From contig OZ024756.1 in assembly GCA_964016885.1 (NCBI GenBank), positions 34,224,001 to 34,288,000 on the forward strand: a stretch of DNA of 64,000 bases, read 5' to 3'. The notes beneath the pieces were generated by a model. That model was given only the letters and a program-made list of their open reading frames with translations. It was not told where the DNA came from and made no database searches. Position 1 is the stretch's first letter; each line of letters begins with the position of its first letter. A program made the position numbers and the translations under genes. Shown in pieces: positions 6,994 through 9,438 of this stretch. The stretch comes from Eledone cirrhosa (taxonomy: Eukaryota).

Positions 6994-9438
6994 TCATCAA
7001 TTAACATCTATCTTCCAAGCTAGCATCATCATCATATATAGATATATACACAGCACTCTCTAGTCAGCCTTAAGTTCAACAAATTGTTTAACAGAAACAT
7101 TGTCAAGGGTAGTTACAACTGTATACAAAAATGTTGACAATATATAGGCAAACATTCAAATGCAACTCCCAAACCAAACCAGATCAAATCAGAAAAATAT
7201 TCAATGAAACAAGTTTAGCCTTGAAGTAAAAGTAAAATCTCAGGTGAGAAATCCTAGGTAGCTTTCAAGGAAACAAAACAAATCTTGTTTTGATATGAAC
7301 AAAGGCAGTATTAAAATGTCTTTCCTCCATAACAAATCTACTTACAGGAACAAAAACAAAACAAAAGTGTTACAGGGTTATCCAGTGTGTAATGGCAGCT
7401 GAAATTACATGTTGACCAGTTTGACCATTTGACTATAAACAGAATATCGTAATGCCTATTATGCATTGCAGAGAAATACCATAAATAAACTTATACTGTG
7501 AACAGAATGACAGAGAAAATGTCAAAATCATGTCACAAAAACAAAATTCTACCTAAAAAATGACAACTGTAAAATAGATTTCATTGATCAGCCAGATGTA
7601 AACAACAGAACTAAATGGAATTTGGTATCATTTCTGTCATGCAACAGTGAGTATCAATCAGTTAACATGTCAGTCATTTCTTTAATGTTAAACTGTCTGG
7701 TGTTTGTTTCATCAACAAGACACTTGTAGTAGATCAGCCATCTTTAACAGCAATACACATACACATGCATACACACATATATACAGATACATTATATGTT
7801 GGACCTCCATTGTTTCCAACGATTCAAAAAACAAACTACACAACAATGTGGTGCATATTTAGGTTGTAACATGTGGCATGTTTAGATTGTAATGTGGAGA
7901 ATGTTCAAGTCGTAACATGTGGCATGTTTAGGTTGTAACATGTGGTGTGTTCAAGTTGTAACATATGGAATATTTAAGTTGTAATGTGGTGTATGTATGT
8001 TCAAGTAGTAACATGTGGCATGTTTAGGTTGTAACGTGTGGCATATTTAGGTTGTAACATGTGGCGTGTTTAGGTTGTAACATGTGGTGTGTTCAAGTTG
8101 TAATATGTGGCATGTTTAGGCTGCAAAAATTTCAGAGTTCATTTGCATATGTTGTTGCTGTTTAACCCAATGTCATCTGTATATGTTCTTTAGCCCTAGG
8201 TCAACCCTAATTCAACAGACTTATGATCAAAAACATTCAAACAATGACCATCTTGCCTTATTTTTTTTTGGCAGCAGGGAGGCAGGGACAGGCTGAGGTT
8301 TGAAGGATATTTGGACATTTGGCTGCTATTTCCAGCAGGTTAAGTAGAGACCTCTTAAATAATTTGTCTATCACATGTGTATTATATCCCCAGATAATTC
8401 ACACCAGTATGTCTATAAAATGGTTTTTACCTAGATACCTGTACAATCTCCTGTACTCACATTGTGTCCTCAAGGCATGCTACATACATATATACACACA
8501 GATATACACACAAGAAAAAATATACAACATACAAGATAGAATGTATAATTCAATGAATTCTATAACAACATATATATGATTTGCATGGTTTTGTATAATT
8601 TCATATATTATATATTACTCCTTGTTACAATATAGGGAGATCAATATATCTATATATACATATATTATATATACACATATATATTTATGTATATATAATA
8701 TAATATATATGCGATATATATATATATGATATCTATAAATACATGAGATCTATAAATATATATATCATATCCATATATCCATATATATATATATATAATA
8801 TATGTGAGATCTATATATATGATATATATATATCATCATTTAACCTATATATATATATATATATTGTTATACTTTGGGAGGGTCATGTTGCCAATAAGAA
8901 ACACACGCACCAGTTGCTTTCACTTCAATTTAATTTATTATATATTTATAAATTTACGAATTTATAAATTTCTGGTTGGTTGGTTCCACAACCAGATAGT
9001 TGTTTATATATATATAGTCATAGTTCTTTCGTCACACACTCTGTGACCTCTTCAGTGACTGGGGATTTCTTTCTTCGTTTCTGTGCCTTTCCTTTCTTCT
9101 ATCCTACGCCATTCTATCCTACGCCAAAATGGCGTAGGATAGAAGAAAGGAAAGGCACAGAAACGAAGAAAGAAATCCCCAGTCACTGAAGAGGTCACAG
9201 AGTGTGTGACGAAAGAACTATGACTATATATATATAAACAACTATCTGGTTGTGGAACCAACCAACCAACCAGAAATTTATAAATTCGTAAATTTATAAA
9301 TATATAATAAATTAAATTGAAGTGAAAGCAACTGGTGCGTGTGTTTCTTATTGGCAACATGACCCTCCCAAAGTATAACAATATCGGTTTCAACACACGA
9401 TTTCAGATAAAGAATCTTGCTAAACAAATTCAGAAACG

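Follow-up and report, generated by a model that had tools for sequence, protein, structure and literature searches.

Hammerhead ribozymes on opposite strands of Penelope-like elements (PLEs), in pairs 100-700 bp apart, have already been published; tested in vitro, a monomeric minimal hammerhead did not cleave and dimers were weak (PMC4209133). For the anole PLE PAc (Frangieh et al. 2024, PMC11167929) a dimer is predicted, the ribozyme requires the element's own protein and it is dispensable for insertion. The same study reports that a PLE protein cuts and extends both strands in vitro and that a tail lies between two reverse transcription (RT) start sites; it does not address the origin of inverted arms. 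In those parts of Craig et al. (2021, PMC8557442) that we draw on, the making of Penelope inverted ends is listed as an open question.

Here we describe a fold-back in an octopus, Eledone cirrhosa, that carries two mirror-image hammerheads within the gene EXOC2. It lies in a window of 64 kb, the whole stretch of DNA that was analysed. The fold-back is very probably a head-to-head Penelope-like insertion, truncated at the 5' end twice over, in (TA)n of EXOC2. It would have arisen when the element protein used both strands of the cut target to prime reverse transcription of one RNA, beginning at two sites that lie 57 nt from each other, and it is likely to lack any EXOC2-specific function.

A head-to-head insertion in the last EXOC2 intron

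EXOC2 is encoded on the minus strand; its exons extend from 27.7 kb to about 11,877. The host had been named as the last EXOC2 intron, which tblastn and the annotated isoforms confirmed: the insertion falls in the last intron of both annotated isoforms. Two alternative terminal exons, paralogous and in one phase, lie downstream; in two octopus species they serve the annotated isoforms X2 and X1. The features are as follows.

1925..2020, minus strand: EXOC2 distal alternative terminal exon, isoform X1 type (approximate limits)
5993..6077, minus strand: EXOC2 proximal alternative terminal exon, isoform X2 type (approximate limits)
8644..8860, no strand: (TA)n-rich left flank, the insertion target (TRF period 2 at 8644-8864; sequence)
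8861..9113, minus strand: short-end arm, 3' pseudo-LTR, ending 26 nt into the ORF start (reference 4546-4807)
9016..9060, minus strand: minimal type-I hammerhead in the EXOC2 sense, predicted cut between 9021 and 9020
9097..9126, plus strand: junction with 15-nt tandem duplication, a single genomic occurrence (for its putative mechanism, see below)
9125..9441, plus strand: long-end arm, 3' pseudo-LTR and tail (reference 4543-4864)
9126..9134, plus strand: motif that we take to be YY1-like, just inside the region where arm 5' ends cluster; the transcript may start here
9181..9225, plus strand: minimal type-I hammerhead, predicted cut after 9220 (descriptor scan, sequence)
9359..9441, plus strand: first 83 nt of the element ORF, whose frame stays open over hundreds of further codons in L038, a tandem copy
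9385..9441, plus strand: 57-nt tail found on this arm alone, spanning the interval between two putative RT start sites
9442..9474, no strand: (TA)n right flank (TRF)
11877..11930, minus strand: last shared EXOC2 exon, upstream of the intron (approximate limits, tblastn)

Alignment confirmed the two mirror arms of about 250 bp. Arm 8861-9113 matches the reverse complement of arm 9128-9384 exactly save for one 4-nt microsatellite unit; this indel is their single difference, with 0 substitutions between them. The limits first proposed, 8861..9384, stand at the left end and fall short at the right, where the element runs on to 9441. The full insertion (8861-9441) is asymmetric, its right arm being longer by 57 nt (9385-9441). 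On our coordinate reference, the natural element copy L036, the left arm stops at 4807, 26 nt inside the ORF start, and the right arm reaches 4864, which is window 9441. (TA)n adjoins the insertion on both sides, and a 15-nt tandem duplication (9097-9126) marks the fold-back centre.

This junction occurs only once in the genome assembly, a search with it yielded no parent locus, and comparison of the arms found no editing marks in either. To judge from the lack of substitutions between its arms, the copy is young. Its structure is far beyond chance, yet it is the insertion of a repeat family and not a unique feature.

Perfect inverted repeats are a known long-read artefact, and a chimeric read or misassembly could produce such a palindrome. 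The outer ends, however, fall exactly at the two defined ends of the family and only one arm has the tail. The 4-nt indel and the 15-nt junction duplication also speak against an artefact, as does the recurrence of this architecture in 38 of 41 pairs elsewhere, and we give that explanation almost no weight.

The window holds other repeats. Weaker inverted repeats in the same intron (9763-10036 and 11457-11650), made of a common short repeat and a degenerate pair, add duplex potential, and very long TA-rich arrays occupy 33632-40954 (7.3 kb) and 44212-46208 (2 kb).

The Penelope-like family and its hammerheads

We sampled the 72 loci behind the first 100 matches to an exact 35-mer, all in the first 23 Mb of one contig. 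Longer copies join the arm to ORFs for RT and then a C-terminal GIY-YIG domain, with motifs visible in translation, which bears out a Penelope pseudo-LTR origin. The ORFs of L036 and L037 match RVT_1 (E 2-3e-4) and GIY-YIG (E 3e-3 and 0.03), all below curated Pfam cut-offs. The element protein has 81 relatives at E<=1e-10, the closest named one being an Octopus RT protein. In L036 a C-X4-C-X2-C linker precedes GIY-YIG, and two C and two H follow in the EN core. The pseudo-LTR runs into the ORF start (the frame continues in L038), and a tail is present at one end in 38/41 pairs. On this sequence evidence, each window arm is the 3' pseudo-LTR of an RT and GIY-YIG Penelope-like element that inserts in (TA)n.

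Two other classes were considered and rejected. A MITE or DNA fold-back transposon does not match the asymmetric ends, the inner breakpoints that vary from 30 nt to 3 kb or the RT-bearing relatives. The head-to-tail tandem hammerhead units of a non-LTR retrozyme were not found at the window fold-back or the sampled loci.

The family is large. Exact patterns matched 22,183 arm ends, 12,083 tailed ends and 13,652 short ends running into TA genome-wide, with 0 matches for the reversed controls, which amounts to at least 13,000 insertions. Among the sampled loci, 40 of 72 contain a head-to-head pair (41 pairs in total), in keeping with the expectation that inverted terminal segments are common in Penelope insertions. 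Two complete mirror hammerheads are present in 15 of the 72 by hand count, which extrapolates to thousands of such pairs in the genome.

Other repeats were seen in the fetched loci. A second young, abundant Penelope-like family (L196 3690-4300 and L213-L219), with RT and GIY-YIG motifs recognised by eye, also forms head-to-head pairs. A SINE-like element of about 600 nt ending in (ATGT)n (L198 742-1307, 1445-1850 and 4883-5490) recurs in many loci and shares microsatellite targets with the Penelope family. At G000:C2, 340.93 Mb (L016/L017/L031), a whole fold-back is repeated 4.76 kb apart within long TA tracts.

The hammerhead of each window arm has an intact core and a CUA triplet; its stem I measures 5 bp, its stem II, preceded by an extra G, 6 bp, and its stem III, closed by a 2-nt loop, 2 bp. 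The predicted anatomy held except in stem II, which had been given as 5 bp. A minimal-hammerhead descriptor found only two sites in the 64-kb window, at exactly the positions foreseen (9181-9225 on the plus strand, cut after 9220, and 9016-9060 on the minus strand), whereas Rfam matched no hammerhead in the window and returned only hairpin-shaped microRNA models below cut-offs. Under the descriptor both sites show the features of PLE minimal hammerheads: intact core, extra nucleotide after A9, G10.1-C11.1, short helix I and long helix II. Folded in isolation, the motif forms stems I and II with a z of -0.96, the 2-nt loop III being beyond scoring.

Loop III is AA in the window and GA in 16 of 77 tabulated arms. 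Neither is self-complementary, and a palindromic helix III/loop 3 for dimer formation is absent. Unlike PLE minimal hammerheads (PMC4209133), the non-palindromic loop 3 would give a dimer with two mismatches, and in one subfamily here the predicted dimer has a tandem G-A mismatch. Exact hammerhead cores number 18,450 genome-wide (reversed-pattern control 0). The motif is no better conserved than its surroundings, with 3 polymorphic columns in 45 versus 5/50 and 0/72 in the flanks. The three common variants in the 77 arms sit in loop II, loop III and position 17, and no stem covariation is visible in the hammerheads of this young octopus family. Arm starts near the ribozyme cut site number 5 against 2.1 expected, which is not significant. 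A different minimal hammerhead, without the extra base and with helix I of 6 bp and helix II of 5 bp, occurs in L139 and L140; L139 carries it twice, 470 nt apart, and it may belong to a retrozyme or another Penelope family.

The original prediction held that the hairpin protects a housekeeping gene. Its premises were borne out: the antisense arm comes first in EXOC2 pre-mRNA, and the predicted hairpin is very stable (-457 kcal/mol) and should prevail over other folds. A selected safety catch against hammerhead cutting of EXOC2 pre-mRNA, tuned by ADAR, could draw further on sister fold-backs that are edited inside the duplex and on an insertion site upstream of the terminal-exon choice. But the antisense arm is first because geometry alone imposes that order on any outside read-through, and the same geometry, ribozyme and antisense arising from one insertion, recurs across the sampled pairs. 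The copy is also young, and its ribozymes are of a type inactive as monomers and weak as dimers (PMC4209133). With more than 22,000 exact arm ends, and with mirror pairs already in print, a protective role at EXOC2 is therefore not supported, and we regard it as highly improbable. Nothing points to selection at EXOC2, where the copy is ordinary. By analogy with its edited sisters, editing of the EXOC2 intron hairpin is plausible.

A-to-G scars and a parent/daughter pair

Two of the 72 sampled loci (L082 and L124) carry dense A-to-G changes in the element sense. Pattern and similarity searches extended this hyper-edited set to about 20 loci; in the last round of candidates 11/20 were hyper-edited and 9/20 not clearly so. 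No C-to-T or G-to-A clusters of comparable strength occurred among 259 aligned pieces. As a control, a three-site T-to-C pattern gave 0 matches and a looser T-to-C pattern found only the known L196 arm.

Across 10 insertions an upstream G is disfavoured, adenines after G being edited in 31/101 cases versus 191/391 (P 0.001), and a downstream G is favoured (44/78 edited, versus 84/218 for A). The changes were likely made by RNA editing before copying back into DNA. ADAR action on such hairpins, anticipated for the window copy, thus finds its support at the family level, in some 20 A-to-G hypermutated sister loci. A-to-G hypermutated retroviral proviruses were described in the 1990s literature. 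Our search, which largely covered papers outside subscription, found no report of genomic ADAR-scarred retro-copies.

One insertion can be compared with its source. A search with the junction of the edited fold-back L198 (L198/L205, G000:C19, ~14.489 Mb) found a second, unedited locus, L204 (G000:C2:106,390,772-106,391,548). Over 779 columns the two differ by 41 substitutions, 41/41 of them A-to-G and all within the hairpin: 41 of 120 adenines in the paired arms are edited, against 0/73 in the middle and tail, which are unpaired (P 2e-10). Editing after an upstream C (3/27) is lower in this pair than after G (4/17). Parent and daughter also have in common an upstream SINE-like element (5'-truncated; 405/406 identical) and the TA flanks, with an enrichment of G on the left side. 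The best reading of L198 is that a read-through RNA folded into a hairpin, was edited and then gave rise to a processed copy.

In both L196 and L198 the tailed arm shows A-to-G and the short arm T-to-C, amounting to A-to-G on one DNA strand throughout. Junction search found no parent of L196, whose spacer is another repeat. Within L196 (2377-5209), three arms with one-strand A-to-G surround a copy of the second repeat, possibly as one edited processed RNA.

The L204 to L198 transfer raises the thought that the window copy was likewise moved whole, as the processed copy of another fold-back carried in read-through RNA. One such pair is known in the family, but the window junction is single in the assembly and its arms are free of editing marks, which makes this route very unlikely for the EXOC2 copy.

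Probably one RNA, primed from two putative start sites

The two ends of the head-to-head pairs are unlike. A short end faces a tailed end in 38/41 pairs, two tailed ends meet in 3 (one complex, one with a 1.4-kb gap) and two short ends in 0 (P 1e-8), which points to priming on both target strands. Hand-counted 5' reach in these 38 pairs is greater for the short arm in 16, greater for the tailed arm in 14 and equal, to 15 nt or less, in 8. The two arms are thus truncated independently, which suits priming on the two target strands from two fixed starts, as seen in vitro for the anole element (PMC11167929). The 5' ends of arms concentrate at reference 4530-4548, where 14 of the 64 starts in the range 4440-4780 fall (scan P 0.0008), and in L109 and L134 both arms begin where the window arms begin. 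In some cases the partner arm is just the tail or about 30 nt long (L199, L200).

The edited pairs add a record of single molecules. In each of the 8 informative pairs that are hyper-edited on the sense strand, the arms have changed sites in common (28/28, 23/26, 8/11 and 95/95 in the first set; 18/29, 10/16, 51/57 and 32/32 in the second); L197 shares 2/2 and is too short to count. Compared between insertions, edited sites overlap at a Jaccard index of 0-0.46, and among the pairs compared none combined an edited arm with a clean one where the two overlap. Nor did a third copy with the L202 or L124 pattern appear among 40 candidates scored for each, the next best reaching 87%. Both arms of an insertion are thus likely to derive from one RNA molecule. 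At G000:C2, 324.75-324.76 Mb, the oppositely oriented short-end arms L226 and L227, separated by 10 kb, each carry 21 A-to-G changes over the same span, possibly through DNA-level inverted duplication.

Shared sites could also arise if the second arm were a DNA copy of the first cDNA by snap-back, or if gene conversion after insertion had equalised the arms. L202, a perfect palindrome without a loop whose arms are identical over 1,019 columns, suits both ideas, and in L082, L202, L223 and L229 one arm is contained in the other, as snap-back would have it. In the other four of the eight pairs (L124, L203, L222 and L231) sites are shared though neither arm contains the other, and simple snap-back is therefore excluded there. 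The 16 pairs whose short arm outreaches the tailed arm likewise argue against simple snap-back of one cDNA. As for conversion, the arms of L196 and L198 keep opposite patterns, so it is not general, and the arms of ordinary pairs diverge (164 of 6,521 columns, against 3.6% between insertions), contrary to strong conversion. We consider these routes unlikely overall as the origin of the second arm. Snap-back copying is possible in the remaining 4/8 pairs, as is early gene conversion between arms; a mixed route, priming at both ends followed by snap-back, is possible too and also needs one RNA.

Priming of one RNA on both target strands remains the reading we favour. Both strands of the target would be cut and primed, one at ORF +26 and the other at ORF +83. 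In the window both cDNAs would have halted at a common 5' hot spot, possibly the RNA 5' end, leaving near-equal arms and no spacer. That this common stop was the template end, perhaps the transcript start, has about an even chance; a pause site would look alike. The two cDNA ends would then have been joined through slippage at the template end and microhomology. As a side effect of the geometry, a read-through RNA would fold into a duplex of about 250 bp, burying the hammerhead and offering ADAR a substrate.

A known precedent is L1 twin priming, in which both target strands prime cDNA on one RNA and leave an inversion joined by microhomology. In L1 the second primer is extended along a distinct, more upstream portion of the RNA, whereas here both arms copy the same stretch from two fixed starts. 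Our literature search, largely of papers outside subscription, found no description of Penelope twin priming.

For the family as a whole, we think it probable that germ-line ADAR hyper-edits Penelope fold-back RNAs and that the edits are written back to the genome, often with the hammerhead core destroyed. The edits would then serve as single-molecule barcodes, indicating one RNA per inverted insertion and two fixed starts on opposite target strands, and whole fold-backs would also ride as edited passengers in read-through RNA. Shared A-to-G barcodes offer a genome-only test of how Penelope inverted ends arise, and they point to one RNA primed twice. The parent/daughter pair provides direct genomic evidence of octopus germ-line RNA editing fixed in DNA via reverse transcription. 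Part of the unusually abundant duplex RNA reported for octopus may stem from these fold-backs, of which there are thousands (more than 13,000 insertions, over half of those sampled being paired). The interest of the system rests on the family-level ADAR marks and the one-RNA inference, neither of which our literature search found described.

Several known systems resemble this one in part. Octopus RNA hyper-editing, in the portions of Porath et al. (2017, PMC5625713) used here, likewise shows dense one-strand A-to-G clusters in duplexes and depletion of upstream G, and octopus is exceptionally rich in near-perfect duplex loci. The same portions give downstream A as enriched in invertebrates, whereas downstream G is favoured here, and they concern editing in RNA, whereas these marks are fixed in genomic DNA copies. 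Non-LTR retrozymes, as far as covered by the parts consulted of PMC7229834 and bioRxiv 10.64898/2026.07.22.740005, also place type-I hammerheads in short non-coding PLE-related units; they are head-to-tail tandem arrays, whereas the window holds a head-to-head pair of truncated autonomous-element ends. Our literature search found no published octopus Penelope hammerheads; the supplements of PMC4209133, outside that search, may list mollusc ones.

The nearest relatives are PLEs. The anole PAc Poseidon element (Frangieh et al. 2024, PMC11167929) similarly has ends inside the ORF start, two ends that bracket a tail and an AT-rich target; its hammerhead overlaps the ATG, whereas here the hammerhead lies about 140 nt upstream. 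By motif likeness, the octopus element resembles the Neptune and Nematis PLEs, for which the portions of Craig et al. (2021, PMC8557442) drawn on describe RT with C-terminal GIY-YIG, CCHH and a CX2-5CxxC linker common to both. Those portions also describe pseudo-LTRs, an inverted 5'-truncated copy, a one-end tail, microsatellite targeting and a pseudo-LTR hammerhead. The tail is 57 nt here against 30-40 in the Neptune/Nematis type, and the near-strict pairing of short with tailed ends, counted here, is treated qualitatively in those portions. The octopus element is a new family of an already known Penelope type, and its EXOC2 copy an ordinary member.
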